Shown: positions 2,982 to 34,985 of the stretch, piece after piece
How positions within the stretch are numbered: the first letter of the stretch is position 1
How the letters are laid out: each line of letters begins with the position of its first letter
NCBI RefSeq assembly: GCF_056746865.1
Contig: NZ_CM163382.1
DNA length: 64,000 bases
Reading direction: 5' to 3' (one strand)
Notes under the pieces: generated by a model
Seen by the model: only the letters and a program-made list of their open reading frames with translations
The model's database searches: none
What the model was told of the DNA's origin: nothing
Program-made: the position numbers and the translations under genes

Positions 2982-4322
2982 ATGACGACACAATCCAGTC
3001 CTGTTATTACTGATATGAAAGTCATTCCGGTCGCCGGGCACGATAGCATGTTGCTTAATATTGGTGGGGCGCATAACGCATATTTCACTCGCAATATTGT
3101 GGTACTCACCGATAACGCCGGGCATACCGGCATTGGTGAAGCGCCAGGCGGAGAGGTGATTTATCAGACATTGGTCGATGCTATTCCGATGGTGCTGGGC
3201 CAGGAAGTTGCGCGCCTGAATAAAGTGGTTCAGCAGGTGCATAAAGGTAATCAGGCAGCCGATTTTGATACCTTCGGCAAAGGTGCCTGGACTTTTGAAT
3301 TGCGCGTTAATGCCGTGGCGGCGCTGGAAGCCGCCTTGCTTGACCTGCTAGGTAAGGCGCTGAATGTTCCGGTCTGCGAACTGTTGGGGCCAGGCAAGCA
3401 ACGCGAGGCTATTACCGTCCTCGGTTATCTGTTTTATATCGGTGATCGGACCAAAACCGATCTTCCTTATCTGGAAAATACGCCGGGCAACCATGAGTGG
3501 TATCAATTGCGGCATCAGAAAGCGATGAACAGCGAAGCCGTTGTGCGTCTGGCGGAAGCTTCACAGGATCGCTATGGCTTTAAAGATTTCAAACTTAAGG
3601 GCGGGGTGTTACCTGGCGAGCAAGAAATCGACACTGTTCGTGCATTGAAGAAACGCTTCCCGGATGCGCGAATTACCGTTGATCCCAACGGTGCATGGCT
3701 GCTTGATGAAGCAATTTCTCTGTGCAAAGGGCTGAATGATGTTCTCACCTATGCTGAAGATCCATGCGGCGCTGAGCAGGGTTTCTCCGGTCGTGAAGTG
3801 ATGGCTGAGTTTCGACGGGCGACCGGCCTGCCCGTCGCGACCAACATGATTGCCACCAACTGGCGCGAAATGGGCCATGCGGTAATGCTTAATGCGGTGG
3901 ATATTCCACTTGCCGATCCGCATTTCTGGACGCTTTCCGGTGCAGTCCGCGTAGCGCAGCTTTGCGACGACTGGGGGCTGACCTGGGGCTGCCATTCCAA
4001 TAACCACTTTGATATCTCTCTGGCGATGTTTACCCATGTGGGTGCGGCGGCACCGGGTAATCCTACCGCTATCGATACCCACTGGATTTGGCAGGAGGGC
4101 GATTGTCGCCTGACCAAAAATCCGCTGGAGATTAAAAACGGAAAAATTGCCGTTCCTGATGCGCCCGGTCTGGGCGTGGAACTGGACTGGGAGCAGGTAC
4201 AAAAGGCGCATGAGGCCTATAAACGTCTGCCTGGCGGTGCGCGTAACGACGCGGGCCCGATGCAGTACCTGATCCCCGGCTGGACCTTTGACCGTAAACG
4301 TCCCGTTTTCGGCCGTCATTGA
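2982..4322 (+). CDS. gudX: glucarate dehydratase-related protein GudX (enolase superfamily)
   Basis: 446-aa ORF starting 2 bp after gudP stop; enolase-superfamily sequence, paralogous to downstream GudD. Confidence 0.9.
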
Positions 4323-21272: not shown

Positions 21273-21850
21273 TGAGTTCCCCGCGCCAGCGGGGATAAAC
21301 CGTCTGGGCCGGATTCGATCCCGCGCGTACCGGAGAGTTCCCCGCGCCAGCGGGGATAAACCGTACAATCCCGCATCGAAACTGAATACCCCGATGAGTT
21401 CCCCGCGCCAGCGGGGATAAACCGTTGCCCAGGCTTTTGCGAAAATTTGTGATTTGGAGTTCCCCGCGCCAGCGGGGATAAACCGACACGGGGCAGATTG
21501 AGCAGGACTGCGACCTCGAGTTCCCCGCGCCAGCGGGGATAAACCGGCAGCAGATTTACAAACAGATCGGAGATTACTGAGTTCCCCGCGCCAGCGGGGA
21601 TAAACCGCGCGGCCTGCGCTCGCGTAAAATCAGTTGCAGGAGTTCCCCGCGCCAGCGGGGATAAACCGTCCGCGCAAGCCTATATAAACCAGATTGATCA
21701 GAGTTCCCCGCGCCAGCGGGGATAAACCGCGAAATCGCACGCGCTTCCCGCATGGGGGAAAGAGTTCCCCGCGCCAGCGGGGATAAACCGTGTAAAAGTC
21801 TTGGTTTTGGCGCATCATTTGTGAGTTCCCCGCGCCAGCGGGGATAAACC
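21273..21850 (+). CRISPR. type I-E CRISPR array, 10 repeats of 29 bp (GAGTTCCCCGCGCCAGCGGGGATAAACCG), 9 spacers of 32 bp, terminal repeat degenerate (ends ...CCA)
   Basis: exact 61-bp periodicity; repeats start at 21273, 21334, 21395, 21456, 21517, 21578, 21639, 21700, 21761, 21822. Confidence 0.97.
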
Positions 21851-22283
21851 ACCATATAACCCGTTATCTCTTTCTCAAGTTTTTATATTAGCAGTACTCG
21901 TATTAAGCAATATATCCACGTAACACCTCATGTTCAAAATAGCTCTCCATATATGAGAAGTTCACAATTATCGATACAAAAAATCAAATTTAATTAAAGT
22001 GTTAGTTGTATGATACTTAAATCATTAAGAAATTATCATATATTATTTTTTTAATATTGAATTGATGTTTGTTAATTTTTTCTTTAGGATAGTAGTTTGT
22101 TTTTTAAGCTTATTATTCATTGATTAAGTAATAAATCTGGAAATTTGTCTTTGTTTTGAGGCTAATGAGTGGTTTTACATAATCGCCTCTATACGCTGTT
22201 GATGAATAGTTCTTATGAATAAAGATATCCAGTTCATACTTTAAGTGAAAATTGATAAAGTGCGATTCGTATTGTCTTTTATT

Positions 22284-22288: not shown

Positions 22289-22379
22289 TAGACTGGCCCC
22301 CTGAATCTCCAGACAACCAATATCACTTAAATAAGTGATAGTCTTAATACTAGTTTTTAGACTAGTCATTGGAGAGCAG

Positions 22380-22745
22380 ATGATTGATGTCTTAGGACCG
22401 GAGAAACGCAGACGGCGTACTACACAGGAAAAGATCGCTATTGTTCAGCAGAGTTTTGAACCGGGAATGACGGTCTCCCTTGTTGCCCGGCAACACGGTG
22501 TGGCAGCCAGCCAGTTATTTCTCTGGCGCAAGCAATACCAGGAGGGAAGTCTTACTGCTGTGGCCGCAGGAGAGCAGGTCGTTCCTGCCTCTGAACTTGC
22601 TGCTGCCATGAAGCAGATTAAAGAACTCCAGCGCCTGCTCGGCAAAAAAACGATGGAAAATGAACTCCTTAAAGAAGCCGTTGAATACGGGCGTGCAAAA
22701 AAGTGGATAGCGCACGCGCCCTTATTGCCCGGGGATGGGGAGTAA
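22380..22745 (+). CDS. insC: IS2 OrfA (InsC), helix-turn-helix transposase subunit
   Basis: ORF 22335..22745; preferred ATG at 22380 ([18 protein letters not shown]...), 121 aa. Confidence 0.85.
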
Positions 22746-23608
22746 GCTTAGTCAGCCGTTGTCTCCGGGTGTCGCGTGCGCAGTTGCACGTCATTCTCAG
22801 ACGAACCGATGACTGGAAAGATGGTCGCCGCAGCCGTCACTCAGATGATACGGATGTGCTTCTCCGTATACACCATGTTATCGGAGAGCTGCCCACGTAT
22901 GGTTATCGTCGGGTATGGGCGCTGCTTCGCAGACAGGCCGAACTTGATGGTATGCCTGCGATCAATGCCAAACGTGTTTACCGGATCATGCGCCAGAATG
23001 CGCTGTTGCTTGAGCGAAAAACCGCTGTACCGCCATCGAAACGGGCACATACTGGCAAAGTGGCCGTGAAAGAAAGCAATCAACGATGGTGCTCTGACGG
23101 GTTCGAGTTCCGCTGTGATAACGGAGAAAAACTGCGAGTCACGTTCGCGCTGGACTGCTGTGACCGTGAGGCACTGCACTGGGCAGTCACTACGGGCGGC
23201 TTCGACAGTGAAACAGTACAGGACGTAATGCTGGGAGCGGTGGAACGCCGCTTCGGCAACGAGCTTCCGGCGTCTCCAGTAGAGTGGCTGACGGATAATG
23301 GTTCATGCTACCGGGCTAATGAAACACGGCAGTTTGCCCGGATGTTGGGGCTTGAACCGAAGAACACGGCGGTGCGGAGTCCGGAGAGTAACGGCATAGC
23401 AGAGAGCTTCGTGAAAACGATAAAGCGTGACTACATCAGTATCATGCCTAAACCAGACGGGTTAACGGCAGCAAAGAACCTTGCAGAGGCGTTCGAGCAT
23501 TATAACGAATGGCATCCGCATAGTGCACTGGGTTATCGCTCGCCACGGGAATATCTACGGCAGCGGGCCAGTAATGGGTTAAGTGATAACAGGTGTCTGG
23601 AAATATAG
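22703..23608 (+). CDS. insD: IS2 OrfB (InsD), DDE transposase catalytic subunit, normally made as OrfAB by -1 frameshift
   Basis: 301-aa ORF overlapping orfA; rve/DDE-type sequence. Confidence 0.85.
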
Positions 23609-23641: not shown

Positions 23642-23779
23642 ATATTCCTTGTAAAAACAGGGATAAACCGAACTAGTTAAAGTTTTTATTATGTTCCCTG
23701 CATCAGCGGGGATAAACCGGACTTGTTATCATTTTTTAAGTTGTCGAACTTATGTTCCCCGCGTCAGCGGGGATAACCA
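23642..23779 (+). CRISPR. degenerate CRISPR remnant: three decayed repeats (..cagggataaaccg; atgttccctgcatcagcggggataaaccg; atgttccccgcgtcagcggggataa-cca)
   Basis: partial matches to the 29-bp repeat at ~23642-23670, 23691-23719, 23752-23779; one 32-bp spacer between the last two. Confidence 0.6.
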
Positions 23780-23825
23780 TTCAGGTACGTTCATGCCGGG
23801 CAGTTTCCCGCCCGGCCTTCCTCAC

Positions 23826-25304
23826 TTACGCATTCGACCAGCTCTGGATCGAATCCGCATTCCCCAATTCCCCATGCATCACTTCATACGATTTTTTCAG
23901 GATTACATCAGTATGTTTGGTTAACTCCTTGAAAATGCCTTTATTCATCGCGTCGTAGCGTTTGGCATTGTTCTCAACAGGCATAAAGATATCTTTCACG
24001 CGAACCATTTTGTCGACAGCCGTTGCGTAATCCGGGTATAGCCCCAGACCTACCGCCGTATTGATCGCTGCCCCCAGACTTGCACAACCATTAATGGCGT
24101 TACGGCGTGCCGGAAGGTTGAACACGTCGGCAAAAATCTGCATAAACAGATCGCTGTTCGAACCGCCGCCAGTAATGATCACATGTTTGGCAAAGTGATT
24201 CATTTCATTACACATATTGTCGTAATTGTTCTTCAGCGTCAGCGCCACGCTTTCCAGTATCGAACGATATATCCATGCGTAATCCATGCTGGAATCAAAG
24301 CCGATCATAATCCCGCGTTTGTACGGTTCCCACGGATTGGTCAGCCAGTCCAGCACCGTCATCAGACCATTACAGCCAGGCGGCACACAAGACGCTTTCT
24401 TGTTGAGTAAATCTTCCGGTGAAAGATCCTGTGCTTTGGCATCCTGAATTAACGACTCGCCTAACATGTCGCGCAGCCAGCTCACTGTCCACATGCCTTT
24501 GCGGATACCGTAACCTTCATACAGCAATGTTTGCGGAATAGAAGACATAATTGGCCAGTACGCCACCGGATCTTTCGGCAGTGCTTTGCCGTTCATCATC
24601 AATGCGATGTAAGTGCCAAGAGAAATTACCGCAGTTTCATTATCCAGTAATCCGGCCCCCAGAGCTTCTACCGGTTTATCACTGGTGGTACAAACAACCG
24701 GCAGTCCTGCCGGGAAATGTGTCGCCAGTGCGGCTTGTGGTGTGATATGTCCGAGGACGGTGCCAGGCATTTGCACATCAAAAAGCATATGACGGGGGAT
24801 ATTAAACTTCTCCATGACTGCGGCATCTTCACTCCATGCCCAGGTCTTATAATCCACCGGCCACTGACCAAAATAGTTGGCGATATTGTCTTTAAACTCG
24901 CCGGTTAAGCGATGCGTCAGATAACCTGAAAAAGAGGTGACATATGCCACGTCAGGATTCGTATGTTCGTAAGGGCGTGTAACGCGTGCATCCTGCCAGC
25001 TAATCAACGGCGCAGCTGGCGTGCCATCGGCTTTCAATAACGCACGGCAGCAACGGATGGATCCCAGACCAATACCGACAATATCTTCTTTATTCCCGGC
25101 AAACTGACTCATCAAATCGTGACCGGCAAAACATAATGATGCCCATAAATCGTCGTCAGGATGTTCTGCGGTATCGGCATCTGGCGTGTGCATCGGCTGC
25201 AATAAGCCTTTGCCTTCGCAAACCACATTACCTTCCAGATCATACATCACCACTTTTGTGCTCTGACTTCCGCCATCAATCCCTATGATGTATTTTTTCG
25301 ACAT
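23826..25304 (-). CDS. ygcE: FGGY-family carbohydrate kinase YgcE
   Basis: 492-aa ORF; FGGY kinase N-terminus (KYIIGIDGGSQSTK). Confidence 0.85.
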   Translation of the reverse strand: MSKKYIIGIDGGSQSTKVVMYDLEGNVVCEGKGLLQPMHTPDADTAEHPDDDLWASLCFAGHDLMSQFAGNKEDIVGIGLGSIRCCRALLKADGTPAAPLISWQDARVTRPYEHTNPDVAYVTSFSGYLTHRLTGEFKDNIANYFGQWPVDYKTWAWSEDAAVMEKFNIPRHMLFDVQMPGTVLGHITPQAALATHFPAGLPVVCTTSDKPVEALGAGLLDNETAVISLGTYIALMMNGKALPKDPVAYWPIMSSIPQTLLYEGYGIRKGMWTVSWLRDMLGESLIQDAKAQDLSPEDLLNKKASCVPPGCNGLMTVLDWLTNPWEPYKRGIMIGFDSSMDYAWIYRSILESVALTLKNNYDNMCNEMNHFAKHVIITGGGSNSDLFMQIFADVFNLPARRNAINGCASLGAAINTAVGLGLYPDYATAVDKMVRVKDIFMPVENNAKRYDAMNKGIFKELTKHTDVILKKSYEVMHGELGNADSIQSWSNA

Positions 25305-25330
25305 GATTTTTCTCCTGTAATTTTCTGGAC

Positions 25331-26608
25331 TTACTTGCTGCTAGCCATAGCAGGGGCGCTATCAGCAGTACGAATTTTTTGGAACAGCAAAAAGGTAAAG
25401 ACGATCACCATGGCAAGCGCCGCCATGCCCATCAGCCACATATTGCGGTAGGCTTCTGCAGCGGGCAGGGTGTCTTGCCAGTAGCCGATAATCGGGTAAA
25501 CGAAGACATCCGGCAGGAATCCAATCACCGAACAAATACCTACCGTGGTGCCCATAATGTAAGACGGTGTTCTCGCTTCGCCAGGGCAGGCCCAGTACAG
25601 CCCGCGTGAGGCGTAACAGGTGAATCCCAGCAGTAAAATCAGGCCAATCCCCATCGCGACCGATTGCGGGTTAGAGTTCGTGACGAGCAGGGCAGTTAAC
25701 GCCAGCAAGCCGAGTACGGAAAGGATTTGGATCACGCGGGTAGGGGATTTCACTTTGCTGTAGGTGGTGATAATGCCACCAAGTGGGCCGCACAGTGCGC
25801 GGAAGATTTTGTTGATCACAATCCCCATGTAGCTCGCCGCCACCAGCGACATGCCGTACATTTCGGTCAGATAGTTGGTGGAGTAACTCAGAATGGCGTA
25901 GATGGTGAAGACACCAAAAATCACCATGCTGCAATACCAGGTGGTGCTGATGCGCAAAACAGCCAGGATGTCGCTAAGCTGGAATGACTGTTTTTCTTCG
26001 TTATTGGTATTGCGCAGGTTGTTGTTATCGCTAACAAAAAACCAACACAAAATGCCCAGCAGAATGTAAACCACACTATAGATAATAATGACCGTTTTCA
26101 GGCTGGCGCTGTCATCCGGTGCAAAGCGAGAAAAGACCCACATGGTAAACACCGCCAGCGACATTACACCGACGCCGCGCAGCCCTTCCATCCAGCCCAT
26201 AATTTTCCCTTGCTCGCTATGATCGCCCAGCAACGAGGCGGCTTTAATCGACACCGACCACAGCATTAAAATCGTCGTTATCGCAAAGGCGACCTGAATA
26301 CAGAGCATTACCCACAGCGGTGGATATGTTGCCATTAACAGACCCAGTAATCCGGTAATGATCATCGCGGAAGTAATCATTTTGCGGTGTGAAAATTTAT
26401 CGGCAATAACGCCGCTGGGGGCATAAAGAATAATAGCCGCAATACCAAAGGTACTCATTATTAAACCTATCTCGGTATTGCTGAATCCCATAAATTTCGC
26501 CATGGGAATTTGATAAATATAACGTAAATAAGCCAGGTCGAAACTAACGCCGCCGCTAAAACTAATTATCGCGAGGGTTATCCAACGGCGATATGAGTTG
26601 TGTTGCAT
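25331..26608 (-). CDS. yqcE: MFS transporter YqcE
   Basis: 425-aa polytopic membrane ORF. Confidence 0.8.
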   Translation of the reverse strand: MQHNSYRRWITLAIISFSGGVSFDLAYLRYIYQIPMAKFMGFSNTEIGLIMSTFGIAAIILYAPSGVIADKFSHRKMITSAMIITGLLGLLMATYPPLWVMLCIQVAFAITTILMLWSVSIKAASLLGDHSEQGKIMGWMEGLRGVGVMSLAVFTMWVFSRFAPDDSASLKTVIIIYSVVYILLGILCWFFVSDNNNLRNTNNEEKQSFQLSDILAVLRISTTWYCSMVIFGVFTIYAILSYSTNYLTEMYGMSLVAASYMGIVINKIFRALCGPLGGIITTYSKVKSPTRVIQILSVLGLLALTALLVTNSNPQSVAMGIGLILLLGFTCYASRGLYWACPGEARTPSYIMGTTVGICSVIGFLPDVFVYPIIGYWQDTLPAAEAYRNMWLMGMAALAMVIVFTFLLFQKIRTADSAPAMASSK

Positions 26609-26926
26609 ATCGTATTCCCATTTGTAATAGACAAAAAAAAGAGAAAAGTAAGCCGCCCTTTCAGGTGGATTACTTTTCTCAGGTCTCTAGTAATTGCAAT
26701 AAGAAATAACATGGAAAGCAGTGGTGTTGTGTGAGAGTAATCACGCTTCTGCTTTTTAAAATTATTTGACAATTCGAATATAACACTGTGATTACGATCA
26801 CATTAGCGATTATGCCCTTATGATAAAAATTATCTCCAGTTACCAGAGATAATGAGAAAGGTAACTTCCCTCTCGCGGGGGAAGTTACCTTTCTTTTTTT
26901 TTGCCTTACGGAAATTGGAGCTAACT

Positions 26927-27712
26927 ATGTCAATCGAATCTCTCAATGCGTTCTCAATGGATTTTTTCTCCCTGAAAGGTAAAACCGCAATTGTTACCGG
27001 CGGGAATAGCGGTTTAGGCCAGGCATTTGCCATGGCGCTGGCCAAAGCAGGCGCAAATATCTTTATTCCAAGCTTCGTTAAAGATAACGGCGAAACAAAG
27101 GAAATGATTGAAAAACAGGGTGTTGAGGTGGACTTCATGCAGGTGGATATCACCGCAGAAGGCGCGCCGCAGAAGATAATCGCCGCCTGTTGCGAACGTT
27201 TCGGTACCGTCGATATTCTGATTAACAATGCCGGTATTTGTAAGCTGAATAAGGTGCTGGACTTCGGTCGTGCCGACTGGGACCCGATGATTGATGTGAA
27301 CCTGACCGCCGCATTCGAGTTAAGCTATGAAGCTGCAAAAATTATGATCCCGCAGAAAAGCGGTAAAATCATTAATATCTGTTCATTATTCTCTTACTTA
27401 GGTGGACAATGGTCACCTGCATATTCTGCCACTAAACATGCTCTTGCCGGATTCACCAAAGCTTACTGTGATGAACTAGGTCAATATAATATTCAGGTAA
27501 ATGGTATTGCCCCTGGCTATTATGCAACAGATATTACGCTGGCGACACGCAGTAATCCAGAAACCAATCAGCGCGTTCTTGATCATATTCCGGCAAACCG
27601 TTGGGGCGATACTCAGGATTTAATGGGCGCAGCCGTATTCCTCGCAAGTCCGGCATCGAATTATGTCAACGGACATTTATTAGTGGTTGATGGTGGTTAT
27701 TTAGTGCGCTAA
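26927..27712 (+). CDS. ygcW: short-chain dehydrogenase/reductase YgcW
   Basis: ORF 26852..27712; preferred ATG at 26927 with GGAG Shine-Dalgarno; Rossmann TGGNSGLG and catalytic YxxxK (YSATK). Confidence 0.85.
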   Translation: MSIESLNAFSMDFFSLKGKTAIVTGGNSGLGQAFAMALAKAGANIFIPSFVKDNGETKEMIEKQGVEVDFMQVDITAEGAPQKIIAACCERFGTVDILINNAGICKLNKVLDFGRADWDPMIDVNLTAAFELSYEAAKIMIPQKSGKIINICSLFSYLGGQWSPAYSATKHALAGFTKAYCDELGQYNIQVNGIAPGYYATDITLATRSNPETNQRVLDHIPANRWGDTQDLMGAAVFLASPASNYVNGHLLVVDGGYLVR

Positions 27713-27781
27713 TCCATAACGGTGGTTTCTGTTTTCTCTTATTAATGATTATTCCATTTTTATTATCAGGAAGGAATTACT

Positions 27782-29236
27782 ATGTCTTTATCTCGCGCAG
27801 CGATTGTCGACCAGCTAAAGGAAATTGTTGGTGCAGATCGCGTAATTACCGATGAAACAGTATTAAAGAAGAACAGTATTGACCGTTTTCGCAAATTTCC
27901 GGATATTCATGGCATTTATACTTTGCCGATTCCGGCAGCGGTCGTAAAACTCGGTTCCACAGAACAAGTATCCCGTGTGCTGAATTTTATGAATGCGCAC
28001 AAAATTAACGGTGTGCCGCGTACCGGTGCTTCCGCTACCGAAGGTGGGCTGGAAACCGTTGTGGAAAACTCGGTGGTGCTCGACGGCTCTGCCATGAATC
28101 AAATCATTAATATTGATATTGAGAATATGCAGGCCACGGCGCAATGCGGAGTTCCGCTGGAAGTGCTGGAAAACGCGTTGCGTGAAAAAGGTTACACCAC
28201 GGGGCATTCTCCGCAGTCAAAGCCGCTGGCGCAGATGGGCGGCCTGGTAGCAACCCGCAGTATCGGGCAGTTCTCCACACTCTACGGCGCAATCGAAGAT
28301 ATGGTCGTTGGTCTGGAAGCAGTATTGGCTGATGGCACCGTAACACGCATTAAAAACGTACCACGCCGCGCGGCAGGCCCGGACATTCGTCACATCATCA
28401 TCGGCAACGAAGGTGCATTGTGCTATATCACTGAAGTAACTGTGAAAATCTTTAAGTTCACCCCGGAAAACAACCTCTTCTACGGCTATATCCTGGAAGA
28501 CATGAAAACCGGCTTCAACATCCTGCGTGAAATCATGGTGGAAGGGTATCGTCCGTCGATCGCTCGTTTGTATGACGCTGAAGATGGCACCCAACACTTC
28601 ACCCATTTTGCTGACGGAAAATGCGTGCTGATCTTTATGGCTGAAGGTAACCCTCGCATTGCGAAGGCGACGGGCGAAGGGATTGCTGAAATCGTGGCAC
28701 GTTACCCGCAATGCCAGCGAGTGGACAGCAAGCTGATCGAAACCTGGTTTAACAACCTGAACTGGGGACCGGATAAAGTAGCTGCCGAACGTGTGCAGAT
28801 CCTCAAAACCGGCAACATGGGCTTTACCACCGAAGTGTCCGGCTGCTGGAGCTGCATTCACGAAATCTACGAAAGCGTTATTAACCGTATTCGTACCGAG
28901 TTCCCGCACGCCGACGACATCACCATGCTGGGCGGTCACTCCTCTCACAGCTACCAGAACGGCACCAACATGTACTTCGTTTACGACTACAACGTTGTTG
29001 ACTGTAAGCCGGAAGAGGAAATCGACAAGTACCACAATCCGCTCAACAAAATCATCTGCGAAGAAACCATTCGCCTCGGTGGTTCGATGGTGCACCACCA
29101 CGGCATTGGTAAACATCGCGTTCACTGGAGCAAGCTGGAACACGGCAGCGCGTGGACGTTGCTGGAAGGTCTGAAAAAGCAGTTCGATCCTAACGGCATT
29201 ATGAATACGGGTACTATCTATCCGATTGAAAAATAA
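27782..29236 (+). CDS. ygcU: FAD-linked oxidase YgcU (alkyl-DHAP-synthase-like)
   Basis: 484-aa ORF with FAD-binding-type sequence. Confidence 0.8.
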   Translation: MSLSRAAIVDQLKEIVGADRVITDETVLKKNSIDRFRKFPDIHGIYTLPIPAAVVKLGSTEQVSRVLNFMNAHKINGVPRTGASATEGGLETVVENSVVLDGSAMNQIINIDIENMQATAQCGVPLEVLENALREKGYTTGHSPQSKPLAQMGGLVATRSIGQFSTLYGAIEDMVVGLEAVLADGTVTRIKNVPRRAAGPDIRHIIIGNEGALCYITEVTVKIFKFTPENNLFYGYILEDMKTGFNILREIMVEGYRPSIARLYDAEDGTQHFTHFADGKCVLIFMAEGNPRIAKATGEGIAEIVARYPQCQRVDSKLIETWFNNLNWGPDKVAAERVQILKTGNMGFTTEVSGCWSCIHEIYESVINRIRTEFPHADDITMLGGHSSHSYQNGTNMYFVYDYNVVDCKPEEEIDKYHNPLNKIICEETIRLGGSMVHHHGIGKHRVHWSKLEHGSAWTLLEGLKKQFDPNGIMNTGTIYPIEK

Positions 29237-29329
29237 TGTGTCAGGCAGCGTTCCGCGATGACGGGGCGTTGCCTTTTCGGCTTCTCAGGCGAGAAGCCGT
29301 TCTTATTACCGGACAATGAAGGGATAAAG

Positions 29330-30667
29330 ATGAACACTTCACCGGTGCGAATGGATGATTTACCACTTAACCGTTTTCACTGCCGCATTGCTGCGCTCAC
29401 TTTCGGCGCACACCTGACCGACGGTTATGTCCTCGGCGTCATTGGTTACGCCATTATTCAGCTTACGCCCGCCATGCAACTGACGCCGTTTATGGCGGGA
29501 ATGATTGGCGGCTCAGCACTCCTTGGTTTGTTTCTTGGCAGCCTGGTTCTGGGCTGGATCTCCGACCATATTGGGCGACAAAAAATCTTCACCTTCAGCT
29601 TTTTGCTGATTACGCTTGCTTCGTTTTTACAATTTTTTGCCACCACGCCAGAGCATCTTATTGGACTGCGCATTTTGATTGGCATTGGTCTGGGAGGCGA
29701 TTACTCAGTCGGTCACACCTTGCTGGCTGAATTTTCCCCGCGCCGCCACCGCGGTATTTTGCTGGGCGCGTTCAGCGTGGTGTGGACTGTAGGCTATGTG
29801 CTGGCAAGTATTGCCGGACATCACTTTATTAGCGAAAGCCCGGAGGCCTGGCGCTGGCTGCTGGCATCGGCAGCTCTGCCCGCATTGTTGATTACGTTAT
29901 TACGCTGGGGAACGCCAGAATCGCCACGCTGGCTACTGCGCCAGGGGCGTTTTGCAGAAGCTCACGCTATCGTGCATCGCTATTTTGGTCCCCATGTTTT
30001 ACTGGGCGATGAAGTGGCAACGGCGACCCATAAACACATCAAAACCTTGTTCTCTTCGCGCTACTGGCGGCGCACAGCGTTTAACAGCGTCTTCTTTGTC
30101 TGCCTCGTAATCCCATGGTTTGTGATTTATACCTGGCTGCCAACTATCGCCCAGACTATTGGTCTGGAAGATGCGTTGACCGCTAGCCTGATGCTTAATG
30201 CGTTGTTAATTGTGGGTGCGCTGCTGGGATTAGTTCTGACGCACCTGCTGGCACATCGCAAATTTTTGCTGGGAAGTTTTTTGCTGCTGGCGGCAACGCT
30301 GGTAGTGATGGCTTGTTTGCCTTCCGGCAGTTCATTAACGCTGCTGCTTTTTGTTCTCTTCAGCACCACCATTTCGGCAGTCAGTAATCTGGTGGGCATT
30401 TTGCCTGCGGAAAGTTTTCCTACTGACATTCGCTCGCTGGGCGTCGGTTTTGCCACCGCCATGAGTCGGTTGGGCGCGGCGGTAAGTACTGGCCTGCTGC
30501 CGTGGGTGCTGGCGCAGTGGGGAATGCAAGTCACCTTATTGCTCCTGGCGGCAGTGTTGTTGGTTGGTTTTGTCGTGACCTGGCTATGGGCACCAGAAAC
30601 CAAAGCACTCCCGCTGGTGGCGGCGGGAAATGTTGGAGGTGCGAATGAACATTCTGTTAGCGTTTAA
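29330..30667 (+). CDS. ygcS: MFS transporter YgcS
   Basis: ORF 29258..30667; preferred ATG at 29330 (MNTSPVRMDDL...), 445 aa; polytopic. Confidence 0.8.
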   Translation: MNTSPVRMDDLPLNRFHCRIAALTFGAHLTDGYVLGVIGYAIIQLTPAMQLTPFMAGMIGGSALLGLFLGSLVLGWISDHIGRQKIFTFSFLLITLASFLQFFATTPEHLIGLRILIGIGLGGDYSVGHTLLAEFSPRRHRGILLGAFSVVWTVGYVLASIAGHHFISESPEAWRWLLASAALPALLITLLRWGTPESPRWLLRQGRFAEAHAIVHRYFGPHVLLGDEVATATHKHIKTLFSSRYWRRTAFNSVFFVCLVIPWFVIYTWLPTIAQTIGLEDALTASLMLNALLIVGALLGLVLTHLLAHRKFLLGSFLLLAATLVVMACLPSGSSLTLLLFVLFSTTISAVSNLVGILPAESFPTDIRSLGVGFATAMSRLGAAVSTGLLPWVLAQWGMQVTLLLLAAVLLVGFVVTWLWAPETKALPLVAAGNVGGANEHSVSV

Positions 30668-31424
30668 AGCCGAACCGGATGCCGGAATGCTGGCGGAAAA
30701 AGAGTGGCAGGCGGCGGCTCAGGGTAATAGCGGACCGGATGTTTCGCTTCTGCGAAGTTTGCTCGGTGCTGATGAACAGGCTGCCGCCGCGCTGCTGTTG
30801 GCGCAGAGAAAAAACGGTACGTCGATGTCTTTAACCGCGTTGAGCATGGGGGATGAACGGGCGTTGCACTGGCTGCGCTATCTTATGGCTCTTGGGTTTG
30901 AGGAAGCTGTATTGCTGGAGACGGCGGCAGATCTGCGCTTTGCGCCGGAATTTGTCGCTCGCCATATTGCCGAATGGCAGTACCAGAATCCGCTGGAGCT
31001 GATAATTACTGGCTGCCAAAGCAGCGAAGGGCAGAATGGGCAAACGCCATTTTTGCTGGCGGAAATGCTGGGCTGGCCCTGCTTCACCCAGGTGGAGCGT
31101 TTTACTCTCGACGCGCCGTTTATCACCCTTGAACAGCGTACTGAAAACGGGCTGCGCTGTTGCCGGGTTCGCTTGCCTGCGGTGATTGCCGTGCGTCAGT
31201 GTGGTGAAGTGGCCTTGCCAGTACCGGGAATGCGCCAGCGAATGGCTGCGGGGAAAGCAGCAATTATCCGTAAAACTGTTGCTGCCGAATCGCCAGCGAT
31301 GCAGTGTCGGCAACTGGCAAGAGCAGAGCAACGACGCGGAGCGACGCTGATTGATGGGCAAACGGTAGCAGAAAAAGCGCAAAAGCTATGGCAGGACTAT
31401 TTACGCCAAAGGATGCAGCCATGA
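30645..31424 (+). CDS. ygcR: electron-transfer flavoprotein beta-subunit-like YgcR
   Basis: ORF 30630..31424; preferred ATG at 30645 (MNILLAFKAEPD...). Confidence 0.75.
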   Translation: MNILLAFKAEPDAGMLAEKEWQAAAQGNSGPDVSLLRSLLGADEQAAAALLLAQRKNGTSMSLTALSMGDERALHWLRYLMALGFEEAVLLETAADLRFAPEFVARHIAEWQYQNPLELIITGCQSSEGQNGQTPFLLAEMLGWPCFTQVERFTLDAPFITLEQRTENGLRCCRVRLPAVIAVRQCGEVALPVPGMRQRMAAGKAAIIRKTVAAESPAMQCRQLARAEQRRGATLIDGQTVAEKAQKLWQDYLRQRMQP

Positions 31425-32281
31425 ATATCGCAATTGTGACAATAAATCAGGAGAATGCCGCAATAGCGAGCTGGCAGGCGGCGCAGGATTTCAGCGGTTG
31501 TACCCTGGCGCACTGGAAGATTGAACCTCAGCCCGCTGTGGCGGAACAGGTGCTGGATGCGCTGGTGGAACAGTGGCAGCGAACGCCTGCGGACGTTGTT
31601 CTCTTTCCGCCGGGAACGTTTGGCGATGAACTGTCGACCCGGCTGGCCTGGCGTTTACATGGTGCAAGCATCTGCCAGGTGACTTCGTTAGATATTCCAA
31701 CCGTAAGCGTGCGCAAATCCCACTGGGGAAATGCGCTAACGGCGACGCTGCAAACAGAAAAACGCCCGCTATGCCTTTCCCTGGCGCGTCAGGCGGGAGC
31801 AGCGAAAAACGCCACGTTGCCCTCTGGTATGCAGCAACTGAACATTGTCCCAGGTGCGCTTCCCGACTGGCTGGTTAGCACAGAGGATCTGAAAAATGTT
31901 ACCCGTGACCCATTAGCTGAGGCCAGACGGGTGCTGGTGGTGGGGCAGGGCGGAGAGGCAGATAACCAGGAAATCGCTATGCTGGCAGAAAAGCTGGGAG
32001 CCGAAGTGGGCTATAGTCGGGCGCGAGTAATGAACGGTGGCGTTGATGCCGAAAAAGTGATTGGTATTTCCGGACATTTGCTGGCACCTGAGGTGTGTAT
32101 TGTTGTTGGCGCTTCCGGCGCAGCAGCGTTAATGGCGGGCGTACGCAATAGCAAGTTTGTGGTGGCGATTAATCATGACGCCAGCGCGGCGGTATTTTCA
32201 CAGGCAGATGTTGGCGTGGTTGATGACTGGAAAGCGGTGCTGGAGGCACTGGTGACAACCATTCACGCAGATTGCCAATAA
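31421..32281 (+). CDS. ygcQ: electron-transfer flavoprotein alpha-subunit-like YgcQ
   Basis: ORF 31388..32281; preferred ATG at 31421 (MNIAIVTINQ...) overlapping ygcR stop (ATGA). Confidence 0.75.
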   Translation: MNIAIVTINQENAAIASWQAAQDFSGCTLAHWKIEPQPAVAEQVLDALVEQWQRTPADVVLFPPGTFGDELSTRLAWRLHGASICQVTSLDIPTVSVRKSHWGNALTATLQTEKRPLCLSLARQAGAAKNATLPSGMQQLNIVPGALPDWLVSTEDLKNVTRDPLAEARRVLVVGQGGEADNQEIAMLAEKLGAEVGYSRARVMNGGVDAEKVIGISGHLLAPEVCIVVGASGAAALMAGVRNSKFVVAINHDASAAVFSQADVGVVDDWKAVLEALVTTIHADCQ

Positions 32282-32289
32282 CGTGCTGC

Positions 32290-32400
32290 CGGATGATCCT
32301 GCCTACGGTTCTGGCCTGGGGACTTGTAGGCCTGATAAGACGCGTCAAGCGTCGCATCAGACGCTGAATGTCGGATGTGGCGTGCAGCCTACAAATCACA
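32290..32400. repeat. REP/BIME-like palindromic elements between ygcQ and ygcP
   Basis: gtaggcctgataagacgcgtcaagcgtcgcatcagacgc plus a second diverged copy. Confidence 0.6.
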
Positions 32401-32427
32401 CAAATTCAATTCGTTACGATTATCCCG

Positions 32428-33003
32428 TCAAAGCAATTTTTTCGCTAGCGTCCAGACCCCGGTATTCGTGGTGGAAAGCGCCACGACACCTGCGTTAATC
32501 GCATTACGCGCATCTTCTTCATCGCACACCAGCCCGCCAGCAATCAGCGGTTGGCGGATTTTCTCCGTCACCCAGCCCAGCACTTTGGGCATACAGCCTG
32601 GCAGGATCTCAATACAATCCGGATTCGATTGCGCAACTTGCTTATCAATGTTGTGAAACGAAATTGAATCAACAATAAACAGGCGATGAATACAGAAAAA
32701 ACCTTCCGCTCTTGCCGCTTTCAACATTGAGGCTTTGGTACTGATAATGCCGTCCGCCTCAGTCACCAGTTTCAAAAACTGAATCACCACTTCTTTATTT
32801 GACGCGCCTTCCAGCAAATCAACATGAATAAAAGCATATTTTCCGGCGTTCTTAATCTTTTTAACGATATTACTGATGGTGCAGATATTGCCGTACAACA
32901 CGGAAATAAACTGGCATTCAGAGTCGATTGCCAGTTGCAGGCTGGCATTATCTTTAACGGCAGCAATCACCGGATTCTGGCGGAGCAGGTGTAAGAGGGG
33001 CAT
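32428..33003 (-). CDS. ygcP: GlpP-like glycerol-3-phosphate-responsive antiterminator family protein YgcP
   Basis: 191-aa ORF; gene order matches K-12. Confidence 0.75.
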   Translation of the reverse strand: MPLLHLLRQNPVIAAVKDNASLQLAIDSECQFISVLYGNICTISNIVKKIKNAGKYAFIHVDLLEGASNKEVVIQFLKLVTEADGIISTKASMLKAARAEGFFCIHRLFIVDSISFHNIDKQVAQSNPDCIEILPGCMPKVLGWVTEKIRQPLIAGGLVCDEEDARNAINAGVVALSTTNTGVWTLAKKLL

Positions 33004-33019
33004 AAATTATCCTTATTAT

Positions 33020-33280
33020 TTATCCAAAACGGTAGGTGATGCCGAATCCGGAAGGCGGATAGCGCCACTGTTGTAGTGTTGATTCGTCGCACAGCAAACG
33101 GCAGGTGCCACACTCCAGGCAGCCGCGATAATCAACGCGTAAGTCACCTTCCGGTGTGAGCGAAAAAAGACCAGCCGGACAAGCGTTAATCAACCGTTGT
33201 ACCGTCTGACGCTCAACGGAGTCAGCCGGAACAATGTGCGGCGCATCGGCAACGCGCCAGAGATTACGGGCTACAGACAT
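33020..33280 (-). CDS. ygcO: ferredoxin-like protein YgcO (FixX-like)
   Basis: ORF 33020..33316; preferred start MSVARNL... (86 aa); 4-Cys cluster CxxCxxC(R)LLC. Confidence 0.7.
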   Translation of the reverse strand: MSVARNLWRVADAPHIVPADSVERQTVQRLINACPAGLFSLTPEGDLRVDYRGCLECGTCRLLCDESTLQQWRYPPSGFGITYRFG

Positions 33281-34542
33281 CGCAGACTCATGATAACATC
33301 GCCCGCCAGATGCCACAGGCCGTGACGACGTAAATGACGCCAGAATAACTGGCGCAGCGGTGGAACAGGTTTATCACCCTGATCCCATAAATCACGGGAA
33401 ATATCCTGCATTAACGCAGGCCATGCACGGTACCATCCAGGGCGTTGCAAAAGCGCCGGAACATGCTGATAACGTTGTAGAACATCCCATAGCAGGCTGC
33501 GCTCTATGTTGTGATGATAAAGCGCAAACAGATTTTGCGGCTCGCGGTGCTGGCAGGCGCTTATCAGCGTTTGTGCCGCCGCCTGCGCGCCAGTCAGCGC
33601 CATATCCATGCCGCGCACGGAAATTCCGGTATTGACGCAACTGCGCAACGCATCGCCCAGCAGCAGCCAGCCGTTACCGGCGTATTGCACCGGCATACTG
33701 TGCAAGCCACCTTCTGGCACCAGATGCGCACCATACTCCAGTGATTCCGTGTTTTTGATAAGCGGGCGCACTGCCGGATGCGTTTTAAAGCGAGCCAGCA
33801 GCTCGCTTGCCGGAACACGACTTTGCGTAAGGGAAGAGAGCGGGCAAACAATCCCTAACGAGAGCGTTTGTTGATTAGTATAAAGAAATGTGCCGCCGGG
33901 TAAGTCATCACAGATCCCGCCGCTGAACAGCAACGCTGCGCCTTCGTTATTCTCCAGATGAAAACGTTCTTCAATAGCGGATGTTTCAAGCGCCAGCACT
34001 TCTTTGATCCCCAACGCCATCGCTTCGCCAGCAGGACGAGTCACTAACCCGTGACGTTCAGCCAGGACGCTGTTGGCTCCTTCTGCCAGCACCACATAAC
34101 GGGCGCGGAGAATATCGTCACCACAAATGACACCACACACCCTGCCGTTTTCTTCATACAGCGCATCCACCGTCGCACCGGGGATGCATTCGACACCTTC
34201 TTTTTCGGCTTCGGCAACCAGCCACGGATCGAACCGTGCACGTAATACACTCCAGGATTCACCGCCGGGCTGTAAGCTGGAAAACGTCGTTGCGCCATCC
34301 GGCGTTAACAGGGAAAGGCTTTCGTGAGTGATGCGTCGTTCAAGAGGCGCGGTCAGATGAAATTGTGGGAGGAGTTCCGCGAGCGCCTGGGTATATAAAC
34401 GCCCGCCGGAAAGATTTTTGCTGCCGGGGATTTCAGCGCGTTCCAGTAACAAAACGGATAAACCCGCTCGCGCGCAGCGTAACGCGCAAGCGGTGCCTGC
34501 AATACCGGCACCAATAATAATAATGTCGCAGTCGTCTTCCAT
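33271..34542 (-). CDS. ygcN: FAD-dependent oxidoreductase YgcN (FixC-like)
   Basis: ORF 33271..34572; preferred start MEDDCDIIIIGAGIAGTACA (FAD dinucleotide-binding motif). Confidence 0.8.
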   Translation of the reverse strand: MEDDCDIIIIGAGIAGTACALRCARAGLSVLLLERAEIPGSKNLSGGRLYTQALAELLPQFHLTAPLERRITHESLSLLTPDGATTFSSLQPGGESWSVLRARFDPWLVAEAEKEGVECIPGATVDALYEENGRVCGVICGDDILRARYVVLAEGANSVLAERHGLVTRPAGEAMALGIKEVLALETSAIEERFHLENNEGAALLFSGGICDDLPGGTFLYTNQQTLSLGIVCPLSSLTQSRVPASELLARFKTHPAVRPLIKNTESLEYGAHLVPEGGLHSMPVQYAGNGWLLLGDALRSCVNTGISVRGMDMALTGAQAAAQTLISACQHREPQNLFALYHHNIERSLLWDVLQRYQHVPALLQRPGWYRAWPALMQDISRDLWDQGDKPVPPLRQLFWRHLRRHGLWHLAGDVIMSLRCL

Positions 34543-34619
34543 GTCATGCCCCAGATATCCAGAACACAACACCCTAACATAGCGTTACTTAAGGGAAATT
34601 GACCGCCGACACACTCTTA

Positions 34620-34985
34620 TCATTCGCCGCGATAGATGCAACCTGCGGTGCAGGTTTCTTTCACCATAACCGCACTTAACAGCGGAACAACCGGTTTAAC
34701 CTGATCCCAAATCCATTTTGCTAAAACCTCGCTGGTCGGGTTTTCCAGGCCAGGAATATCATTGAGATAATAGTGATCGAGGCGCTCGTAGGTTGGCTTA
34801 AACGCCGCTTTTAGTTCAGCGAAATCGATAATCCAGCCCGTATGCGGATCGACTTCCCCGGTAATTTCCAGTCGCACCATAAAGGAATGCCCGTGCAGGC
34901 GACCACATTTATGCCCTTCCGGGACGTGTGGTAAGCGGTGAGCGGCTTCGAAGGTGAAATCTTTAAATAACGTGGTGGACATCAT
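34620..34985 (-). CDS. queD: 6-carboxy-5,6,7,8-tetrahydropterin synthase QueD
   Basis: ORF 34620..35069; preferred start [10 protein letters not shown]... giving 121 aa; conserved Cys/His motif ([18 protein letters not shown]). Confidence 0.85.

Follow-up and report, generated by a model that had tools for sequence, protein, structure and literature searches.

The ygc cluster of Escherichia coli lies within positions 23826 to 34985 of the 64,000-nucleotide stretch of contig NZ_CM163382.1 (RefSeq assembly GCF_056746865.1) analyzed here, hereafter the window, and is one of the larger gene blocks of E. coli K-12 still left without a function. A preliminary description of this stretch had listed the genes of the cluster but overlooked what tells most about the locus, a regulatory RNA: a leader ending in a terminator is found ahead of both divergent operons, and we consider it likely that this leader acts as a switch operated by YgcP, the GlpP-family protein encoded in the same cluster. 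For the locus as a whole, we lean, if only slightly, towards an intact catabolic system for a small hydroxylated compound, arranged in three transcription units and gated by both CRP and YgcP; our best reading of the substrate, judged from sequence resemblance, would be a glycerol-like compound that can be phosphorylated. The earlier remark that no substrate has been assigned agrees with our full-text literature searches on the gene names, which turned up no pathway or substrate assignment. The leader switch would give a direct route to the inducer, making the open substrate question approachable by experiment.

Between the divergent genes yqcE and ygcW lies a spacer of 318 bp with two strong terminator-like hairpins. 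Each gene has one of them on its sense strand, and both have a U-tract and stop about 25 nt short of the start codon (a 19-bp stem with nine U residues for ygcW; a stem with eight U residues for yqcE). Folding of the whole leaders yielded -43.1 kcal/mol for ygcW (z -5.8) and -31.1 kcal/mol for yqcE (z -3.7). The common leader sequence comprises (G/A)UUAC, Y, AGAGA, N3-4, GAGAAAR and GUAA(C/U), followed by the remainder of the terminator; its first and last five-base blocks are complementary to each other, and the last block together with the GAGAA box makes up the 5' arm of the terminator. Since the 3' arm of the small antiterminator hairpin is thus contained in the 5' arm of the terminator, the two structures are mutually exclusive. 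The terminator alone was predicted at -30.6 kcal/mol vs. -6.7 kcal/mol for the alternative hairpin in ygcW, and at -20.5 kcal/mol (z -4.9) vs. -1.4 kcal/mol in yqcE; with so weak a hairpin set against so strong a terminator, termination would be the default outcome, and a factor would be needed to hold the alternative fold. The covariance model R1 scored the ygcW leader at 81.3 bits and the yqcE leader at 72.8 bits (E 3.7e-12) and found exactly two sense copies in the window; the ygcNOP unit carries no copy, implying that YgcP is not subject to its own switch. No family in Rfam 15 matches the two leaders, and no feature is annotated in RefSeq beneath the leader in 5064 E. coli genomes. We rejected the notion that these hairpins are plain bidirectional terminators, given their sense-strand position after the promoter and ahead of the start codon and the way they track the presence of ygcP.

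The conservation of the leader was followed in 80 loci around YgcU orthologues, taken from a species-level genome collection, in which open reading frames (ORFs) were called and labeled by BLAST. The leader recurs ahead of ygcW and yqcE throughout the Enterobacterales and is also present in Photobacterium, Clostridia, Halobacillus, Virgibacillus, Thalassobacillus, Syntrophomonadaceae, Sporomusa and Saccharopolyspora, with 64 R1 matches in loci outside the window at E < 1e-3. Both the AGAGA and the GAGAA boxes are invariant in 34 aligned leaders (Enterobacterales, Photobacterium, Clostridia, Syntrophomonadaceae and Saccharopolyspora). The antiterminator hairpin, which is not part of model R1, is 89.6% paired among 59 aligned leaders, with compensatory changes in 6 of its 7 pairs; none of 500 shuffles did as well, and slid registers attained at most 56.6% pairing. 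A perfect 5-bp stem is found in 66 of the 67 distinct leaders vs. 49.3 ± 1.9 when the arms are permuted, and the stem variants comprise AUUAC/GUAAU (enteric yqcE and several Bacillota leaders), GUCGC/GCGAC (Saccharopolyspora) and GUUGC/GCGAC. The terminator is paired in 96% of cells among 59 aligned leaders and shows compensatory changes in 8 of 14 pairs, a count to be read with the reservation that the alignment had been fitted to that structure; in addition, the leader sequences are related, so that all these counts overstate the number of independent events, with AUUAC/GUAAU stemming mostly from enteric yqcE.

Two side observations on the leader deserve mention. In Limnobaculum eriocheiris (locus L037, 3086-3161), the yqcE and ygcW leader matches overlap on opposite strands (3086-3152 on the plus and 3095-3161 on the minus strand), both without the usual 5' arm and AGAGA box, and a single hairpin may serve both directions there. 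A metagenome scan for the motif AGAGA-N3-5-GAGAAAAGTAA gave at least 120 stretches; among 100 loci rescored with R1, 99 were chance matches and one, on an E. coli-like contig, was a true element.

The candidate for the factor that holds the alternative fold is YgcP, which matches the Pfam family G3P_antiterm (PF04309) over the full profile at 210.6 bits and has 3kts (E 1.2e-27) and 1vkf as solved relatives. The presence of ygcP and that of the leader go hand in hand: in 57 loci, both were found in 31, neither in 20, the leader only in 6 and ygcP only in none (Fisher p = 1.9e-10). Desulfobacterales clusters have neither ygcP nor leader, and in one of them (L059) a GntR-family gene lies directly upstream of ygcW. 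The best 120 homologues of YgcP are all of the ygc type, and a full HMMER search yielded further relatives at 34-50% identity; the neighbors of those inspected are glpK/glpF, a GlpA-type glycerol-3-phosphate (G3P) dehydrogenase together with DUF1667, or a TRAP transporter and a GDPD phosphodiesterase. Weak R1 matches fall exactly in the leaders of G3P dehydrogenase genes beside glpP (L086, 23.5 bits, E 0.006; L212, 27.1 bits, E 0.0004). By eye, these two leaders and those of L087 and L088 display a short stem, two GAGA-type loop boxes and an overlapping terminator, the layout in L086 and L212 being stem, AGAGA, N3, GAG and terminator; the ordinary glp leaders in this comparison are those of metagenome glpP loci, used in place of the Bacillus subtilis leaders. 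In B. subtilis, GlpP together with G3P is reported to disrupt the terminators in the 5' untranslated regions (UTRs) of glpD, glpFK and glpTQ (PMC9604022). The ygc leader looks like a diverged, tightly conserved subtype of GlpP target, to judge from its sequence, and by analogy we infer that a GlpP-like action would be the natural mechanism for YgcP. If this is true, the ygc locus would present GlpP-type antitermination in a gamma-proteobacterium, of which we found no description in the literature searched, as well as an RNA family new to Rfam 15.

One may also view the cluster as a cryptic remnant in E. coli, with its leader hairpins being ordinary terminators or palindromic spacers rather than a switch run by a protein. 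The literature searches, which gave no phenotype or inducing condition, would agree with this view, as would several signs of decay: 1) in strain Res13-Lact-PEA14-20 (L214, NZ_CP062871.1, 9001-10299), ygcW has lost its 5' end and the greater part of its leader to an IS1 element; 2) truncated forms of YgcU and YgcP occur in E. coli and Shigella protein clusters; 3) the ygcW leader is missing from 362 of 5426 complete E. coli genomes (~7%). The cluster is undergoing loss or inactivation in a minority of lineages. However, at least 80% of the interval is found in 5060 of the 5426 complete genomes (93%), and an intact ygc cluster is the ordinary state in E. coli, its presence in the window being unremarkable. 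Also at odds with a remnant, all ten genes are intact both here and in K-12, YgcP is identical between the two in 191 of 191 residues, and the leader, located on the sense strand of each of the two operons after the promoter and before the start codon, is conserved across phyla with compensatory changes and tracks ygcP. We hold the remnant view to be very improbable.

Besides the leaders, the yqcE/ygcW spacer harbors two of the four matches to the CRP consensus TGTGA-N6-TCACA with at most one mismatch that occur in the window. In both cases, 41.5 nt separate the center of the site from a point just upstream of the leader hairpin that the site faces: for site 1 (center 26794.5) this point is 26836, 2-3 nt before the hairpin of ygcW, and for site 2 (center 26737.5) it is 26696, 2 nt before that of yqcE. 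This spacing would fit two class II CRP promoters with transcripts starting at the switch. A CRP site had been predicted between yqcE and ygcW (PMC1794230), and activation of yqcE-ygcE by CRP has been recorded in transcriptomes (PMC8085971). Elsewhere in the literature, over-expression of YgcS, picked as a NiaP homologue, aided the production of nicotinamide mononucleotide (PMC8601175), and deletion of ygcU left the D-serine phenotype unaffected (PMC13012123); the "ygcO" in a review of the nitrogen-related phosphotransferase system (PTS-Ntr) is a misspelling of ycgO and was set aside.

Turning to the enzymes, no Ygc protein attains a curated equivalog cut-off of NCBIfam in scans of all ten genes, and therefore no specific function can be inherited from a named family. 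Across phyla, the transporters vary while YgcW, YgcU and YgcE stay, with identities of 63-86% (outside the Enterobacteriaceae), 65-94% and 43-58%, respectively, and the three genes are adjacent in 68-75 of 81 loci; this trio is the conserved cross-phylum core of the cluster. YgcW, a short-chain dehydrogenase/reductase (SDR), has 2-deoxy-D-gluconate 3-dehydrogenase (KduD-type, 4z9y, E 2.4e-58) and gluconate 5-dehydrogenase as its best solved relatives and scores close to the cut-offs of the NCBIfam KduD models (350.1 bits vs. 369 and 275.5 vs. 338.9), from which it likely shares the reaction type, but not the substrate, of these enzymes. KduD (2-dehydro-3-deoxy-D-gluconate 5-dehydrogenase) and the gluconate 5-dehydrogenases interconvert a secondary alcohol beside a terminal CH2OH and a hydroxymethyl ketone. 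YgcE, identical to its K-12 counterpart in 482 of 492 residues, is far below the equivalog cut-offs for XylB (142.6 vs. 380 bits), autoinducer-2 kinase (141.5 vs. 528) and GlpK (102.7 vs. 590), and its best solved relative is LsrK (5ya0, E 1.4e-29).

The most telling member of the trio is YgcU. Its best solved relative is alkyl-dihydroxyacetone phosphate (alkyl-DHAP) synthase (4bby, E 5e-40), followed by glycolate oxidase (1e-25) and LctD (1.2e-21), and it also matches the NCBIfam GlcD model at 144 bits. R262, Y398 and H438-H440 of YgcU, all invariant in 13 orthologues from several phyla, align with R419, Y578 and H615-617 of the guinea-pig alkyl-DHAP synthase (AGPS), which we take to be the catalytic residues of that enzyme. 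In the Dictyostelium enzyme, the equivalents are R352, Y508 and R447; alkyl-DHAP synthase deprotonates C1 of 1-acyl-DHAP, forms an adduct with flavin N5, expels the substituent and accepts a new nucleophile, and an extra gating domain, found in alkyl-DHAP synthase (ADPS) only, controls access to the fatty-alcohol channel (PMC3509576). With 484 residues vs. 658 in AGPS, and homology beginning around AGPS residue 193-215, YgcU is devoid of the N-terminal 150-200 residues; for this reason we do not file it as an alkyl-DHAP synthase and liken the two at the flavin site only.

In anaerobes, the cluster has a second flavin oxidase, which bears on the possibility that YgcU and the YgcRQ pair form a D-2-hydroxyacid dehydrogenase of the lactate or glycolate type linked to electron transfer flavoprotein (ETF), in the manner of LctBCD, with the kinase and SDR serving an upstream sugar branch. 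The GlcD, glycolate oxidase and LctD matches of YgcU speak for such an arrangement, and the order oxidase-EtfB-EtfA resembles that of lct operons. The anaerobes, however, have an ETF pair followed by a separate oxidase whose best relative is LctD (7qh2_C), with alkyl-DHAP synthase not among its matches, so that the two oxidases are not equivalent. This LctD-like oxidase (cluster c15) carries the motif TEHGVGK, whereas YgcU carries HHHGIGK, and alkyl-DHAP synthase is clearly the better match for YgcU (5e-40 vs. 1e-25). The glutamate of the EHG motif has a role in the GlcD, LDHD and D2HGDH enzymes. On the HHHG motif and the scores we discarded YgcU as a GlcD-type enzyme, and the D-2-hydroxyacid scheme as a whole seems improbable to us. 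As a side observation, Photobacterium gaetbulicola (L005, 14640-16591) encodes two ETF pairs, of which the second EtfA, coming after the LctD-like oxidase, is longer (383 residues) and shows a faint Fer4_7 match, possibly a ferredoxin domain like that of LctC/CarE-type subunits.

EtfA, EtfB, FixC and FixX-type genes are all present in the ygc cluster, and the preliminary description had suggested from them an electron-bifurcating or ETF-dependent pathway. For bifurcation we found no positive evidence. Typing of the ETF proteins was based on similarity to solved structures and on a motif consensus: YgcR is closest to the Paracoccus (1efp_B, 7.9e-12) and human (1efv_B, 1.4e-9) ETFs, with chains of bifurcating complexes at 1e-5 to 1e-7; YgcQ matches 5ow0_A, 1efv_A and 7qh2_A all at about 1e-22, a tie between the ETF classes; and the YgcR segment CQSSEGQNGQT fits the nucleotide consensus of neither class, bifurcating ETFs carrying a second FAD where the others carry AMP. 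Both subunits would be marginally nearer to non-bifurcating ETFs, if at all, and YgcQ shows in the Pfam scan the ETF and ETF_alpha domains only, without a ferredoxin domain. YgcN, on the other hand, has Thermotoga maritima FixC (7koe_C, E 3.9e-55) as its best solved relative and scores 361-378 bits with the FixC-type NCBIfam models, under the cut-off. Dependence on ETF is plausible for E. coli, and in this part the earlier suggestion holds; as a conserved core of the pathway, however, ETF and FixCX had to be rejected, being missing from many orthologous loci, including the clusters of Pantoea, Erwinia, Serratia proteamaculans, Halobacillus, Thalassobacillus and Virgibacillus, with FixC confined to the Enterobacterales (34 of 81 loci). 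The ETF and FixCX neighbors suggest net electron transfer by YgcU, which would depart from the AGPS reaction, in which an acyl group on DHAP is replaced by an alkyl group without net redox change.

The contents of the regulon outside the enterics bear directly on the nature of the substrate. Genes for BCCT transporters and OpuA-type ABC systems stand behind this leader in Bacillota, Photobacterium and related loci, and in one case so does an MttB-family methyltransferase gene, with a PanB-like gene after it. The gene string of Desulfobacula that contains ygcW also includes genes for an MttB-family protein, a corrinoid protein and a methyltetrahydrofolate methyltransferase, the corrinoid protein scoring 212 bits as MtbC (dimethylamine-type) vs. 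203 bits as MtgC (glycine-betaine-type). The BCCT protein of Halobacillus is nearest to a solved trimethylamine transporter and to DddT. Recurrent extras comprise an aspartase-like lyase, an aldehyde dehydrogenase resembling betaine-aldehyde dehydrogenase, a Fae-family protein, a GldA-like dehydrogenase and an aldo-keto reductase, for which L-glyceraldehyde-3-phosphate and methylglyoxal reductases are the closest named families. These genes point to a compound in those lineages in which a quaternary-ammonium group is joined to a glycerol-like part. In marine, hypersaline and gut anaerobes, the core trio is linked to methyl transfer and to the uptake of quaternary amines, which hints at an unrecognized route for the turnover of osmolytes or lipid head groups. 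As the E. coli cluster has MFS (major facilitator superfamily) carriers and none of these extras, its substrate may differ in the substituent.

The preliminary description had proposed a sugar alcohol or acid as substrate; spelled out, this could be, e.g., a tetritol handled like erythritol in Brucella, with YgcE as the polyol kinase, YgcU as the polyol-phosphate dehydrogenase and YgcQR-NO as a bifurcating FixABCX-type system. In its favor, an FGGY kinase, a respiratory flavin dehydrogenase and a G3P-type regulator mirror GlpK/GlpD and EryA/EryB, SDR models for polyols and sugar acids, GolD/DthD among them, give scores with YgcW, YgcS is a carrier of the sugar-porter type, and the best solved relative of YgcN is the FixC of a bifurcating EtfABCX complex. 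Nonetheless, YgcU is alkyl-DHAP-synthase-like, unlike GlpD or EryB; the ETF subunits lean towards the non-bifurcating class, and, along with FixCX, are dispensable in many orthologous clusters; and the BCCT, OpuA-type and MttB families under leader control are specific for quaternary amines, not for sugars. We regard the sugar alcohol or acid scheme as unlikely in this form, and the term itself proved too loose, considering that the relatives of YgcP control glycerol, G3P and glycerophosphodiester genes and that the same regulon outside the enterics covers quaternary-amine transporters and methyltransferases.

Returning to the glycerol-like substrate that we favor, the following course of events may be envisaged. 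At the first gate, which is partly demonstrated, the two CRP sites would render both divergent promoters dependent on cyclic AMP. At the second, whose anatomy is apparent and whose action is surmised, the ygcW-ygcU-ygcS-ygcR-ygcQ and yqcE-ygcE transcripts would both begin in a leader that terminates by default. The 5' half of the terminator could instead form a weak GUUAC...GUAAC hairpin of 5-7 bp, with AGAGA and GAGAA in its loop, and YgcP, made from the separate ygcNOP unit, would bind and stabilize this hairpin when loaded with a phosphorylated intermediate, presumably G3P or a close analogue, thus permitting read-through. Import would be through YqcE and/or YgcS. YgcW would then turn the secondary alcohol beside the CH2OH group into a hydroxymethyl ketone, in the fashion of KduD and gluconate 5-dehydrogenase, and YgcE would phosphorylate the primary hydroxyl to give a 1-substituted DHAP. 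A 1-substituted 2,3-diol oxidized at C2 and phosphorylated at C3 would be a 1-substituted DHAP, the substrate class of the alkyl-DHAP synthase active site; YgcU would act at C1 of this compound, with release of the substituent and a product at the triose-phosphate level. In E. coli, electrons would pass from YgcU to the ETF YgcRQ, on to YgcNO and finally to quinone. This enzymatic scheme, drawn from family resemblance and gene order, is tentative, and we would not wager on it in its entirety.

Several points weigh against our reading of the locus, in addition to the two reservations on the pairing counts given above: 1) the action of YgcP on the leader is a proposed one, and G3P or an analogue a candidate effector; 2) 6 loci have the leader but no ygcP within the stretch fetched, several of these being short contigs; 3) several versions of the cluster do without ETF and FixCX; 4) the LctD-like oxidase may be the real partner of ETF in anaerobes; 5) alkyl-DHAP synthase is redox-neutral, so that an ETF partner does not follow from the AGPS analogy; 6) the order of the enzymes is guesswork; 7) E. 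coli possesses GlpK, GlpD and GlpABC, and G3P as inducer would hence cross-talk with glycerol metabolism.

A more specific version of the glycerol-like reading is that YgcW, YgcE and YgcU free the glycerol moiety from a glycerol-linked charged head group. Candidates would be a glycerophosphocholine-like compound, an onium or sulfonate compound with a 2,3-dihydroxypropyl group, and the water-soluble backbones that betaine lipids contain (glyceryl-trimethylhomoserine). Oxidation at C2 and phosphorylation at C3 would be followed by a flavin-N5 cleavage of the C1-X bond in the style of alkyl-DHAP synthase, and a G3P-like intermediate would turn on the regulon via YgcP. This would explain why BCCT, OpuA and MttB genes stand under the same leader, why the extras, among them an alcohol dehydrogenase or aldo-keto reductase, recur in some loci, and why the relatives of YgcP are found at glycerophosphodiester and glycerol genes. 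In the literature we found no route combining an alkyl-DHAP-synthase-like enzyme with FGGY, ETF and BCCT genes, and no route for the catabolism of betaine-lipid head groups. We deem the head-group version quite doubtful; if true, it would represent a new enzymatic cleavage of an ether, C-N or C-S bond and the first catabolic route for such head groups.

As for the locus itself (Table 1), the interval is E. coli chromosome, 100% identical to that of several sequenced strains. The gene inventory given in the preliminary description was borne out in full by the ORF listing together with Pfam and NCBIfam scans, on which our family calls are based, and so was the likeness to K-12 MG1655: order and orientation are the same, and the ten ygc genes are full length, without internal stop, and encode proteins 96-100% identical to those of K-12. 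The limits of the interval fit the cluster except at the end at 34985, where the final 366 bases are filled by queD, an unlisted and unrelated queuosine gene that is not a member of the ygc cluster. Of the two carriers, YqcE has weak NCBIfam matches to the D-galactonate (ACS) and PgtP (OPA) subfamilies, and its gene forms one transcript with that of the kinase, following the leader element, in both Enterobacterales and Photobacterium. YgcS could start at 29258 (469 residues in this lineage) or at 29330 (445 residues, the K-12 equivalent); a GC-rich hairpin at 29278-29299, inside the longer frame, favors the K-12 start. The only Rfam match, a weak one to naRNA4, an RNA family derived from REP elements, is at 32329-32401 on the minus strand, where ygcQ and ygcP converge across a gap of 146 bp; with 26 bits (E 0.38) vs. 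a gathering score of 59.5, it probably reflects a REP-like palindrome or chance.

Table 1. Genes, leader elements and CRP-like sites of the ygc interval (positions in the window).
Feature	Positions	Strand	Description
ygcE	23826-25304	-	FGGY kinase, 492 aa; Pfam FGGY_N and FGGY_C; second gene of the yqcE-ygcE operon
yqcE	25331-26608	-	MFS transporter, 425 aa; Pfam MFS_1
yqcE leader element	26633-26702	-	arm AUUAC 26694-26690; AGAGA 26688-26684; GAGAA 26680-26676; arm GUAAU 26673-26669
yqcE leader, terminator part		-	stem 26680-26641; U-tract 26640-26633
CRP-like site 2	26730-26745		TGTGAGAGTAATCACG; one mismatch to TGTGA-N6-TCACA
CRP-like site 1	26787-26802		TGTGATTACGATCACA; perfect match to TGTGA-N6-TCACA
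ygcW leader element	26831-26902	+	arm GUUAC 26839-26843; AGAGA 26845-26849; GAGAA 26854-26858; arm GUAAC 26861-26865
ygcW leader, terminator part		+	stem 26854-26895; U-tract 26896-26902
ygcW	26927-27712	+	SDR, KduD / gluconate-5-dehydrogenase type, 261 aa; Pfam adh_short
ygcU	27782-29236	+	FAD enzyme, 484 aa; Pfam FAD_binding_4 and FAD-oxidase_C
ygcS	29258/29330-30667	+	MFS, sugar-porter / aromatic-acid type; Pfam Sugar_tr, NCBIfam matches
ygcR	30645-31424	+	ETF beta-like, 259 aa; Pfam ETF
ygcQ	31421-32281	+	ETF alpha-like, 286 aa; Pfam ETF_alpha and weak ETF
ygcP	32428-33003	-	GlpP-family antiterminator, 191 aa; last gene of ygcN-ygcO-ygcP
ygcO	33020-33280	-	FixX-like ferredoxin, 86 aa; NCBIfam FixX 84 bits vs. 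166; weak Pfam Fer4_9
ygcN	33271-34542	-	FixC-like ETF:quinone oxidoreductase, 423 aa; Pfam DAO and ETFQO_UQ-bd
queD (ygcM)	34620-34982/5	-	6-carboxytetrahydropterin synthase by RefSeq and K-12 annotation; 119 of 120 residues as in K-12

In the neighboring DNA, a type I-E-style CRISPR array with the repeat GAGTTCCCCGCGCCAGCGGGGATAAACCG and a 61-nt spacing lies between queE and ygcE, at 21387-21855 and 23646-23783, split by an insert of about 1.8 kb whose ORFs encode 136 aa (22335-22745) and 301 aa (22703-23608). Just 56% of the stretch with the insert is covered by the closest genomes, and the stretch has thousands of matches on plasmids; the insert is probably an insertion sequence (IS) element, presumably IS2-like by the size of its ORFs. 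In the closest annotated genome (L001, 24060-27160), the place downstream of cysH that cas3 and the cas operon occupy in K-12 is taken by hok/Gef toxin genes and IS421 copies, and the array near ygcE would be without adjacent cas genes if the window resembles L001. Beside eno, L001 (2018-5601) has three TPM-domain genes, one of them a pseudogene, and a LemA-family gene, while K-12 (L002, 19558-20584) has yqcG and ygcG only.

With respect to known systems, the closest parallel to the proposed control is B. subtilis GlpP, which like YgcP is a PF04309 protein whose target operons have an intrinsic terminator at their start, within the 5' UTR, with catabolite control layered on top (CcpA there, CRP in ygc). 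The differences are that: 1) the host of ygc is a gamma-proteobacterium; 2) GlpP targets glpK, glpD and glpF, whereas the ygc targets are an SDR, an FGGY kinase and the alkyl-DHAP-synthase-like set; 3) the ygc leader subtype scores 43-83 bits with R1, as opposed to at most 27 bits for glp-type leaders; 4) YgcP is encoded with FixCX-like genes and not ahead of its targets. On the metabolic side, the GlpK/GlpD route and the EryA/EryB route of Brucella follow the same logic as ygc, with an FGGY kinase giving a polyol phosphate that is passed to a flavin dehydrogenase and the respiratory chain, and in both the phosphorylated intermediate acts as inducer. In contrast to these routes, the flavoenzyme of ygc is of another family, an extra SDR is always present, and genes for quaternary-amine transport and methyl transfer are co-regulated in other phyla.

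The electron-transfer genes find their counterpart in FixABCX and YdiQRST of E. coli, paralogous sets of ETF beta, ETF alpha, FixC-like and FixX-like proteins that, as in ygc, are attached to a catabolic cluster; it is well established that FixABCX is linked to the carnitine operon cai, and likewise for the link of the ydi genes. All four Ygc proteins, however, fall under the NCBIfam cut-offs for Fix proteins, and the partner enzyme in ygc is the alkyl-DHAP-synthase-like oxidase rather than one of the acyl-CoA dehydrogenase type as with FixABCX and YdiQRST. LctBCD of Acetobacterium woodii resembles ygc in that a flavin oxidase of the same superfamily is encoded beside EtfB and EtfA, and the anaerobic ygc clusters share with it the LctD-like oxidase after the ETF genes; the E. 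coli cluster differs in having no second, LctD-like oxidase, in the lack of a ferredoxin domain in YgcQ and in YgcU not being of the LctD type. Finally, AGPS possesses the same two flavin domains as YgcU, but it is redox-neutral and directed at lipids, whereas the gene of YgcU has ETF genes and genes for carriers of small polar molecules as its neighbors.

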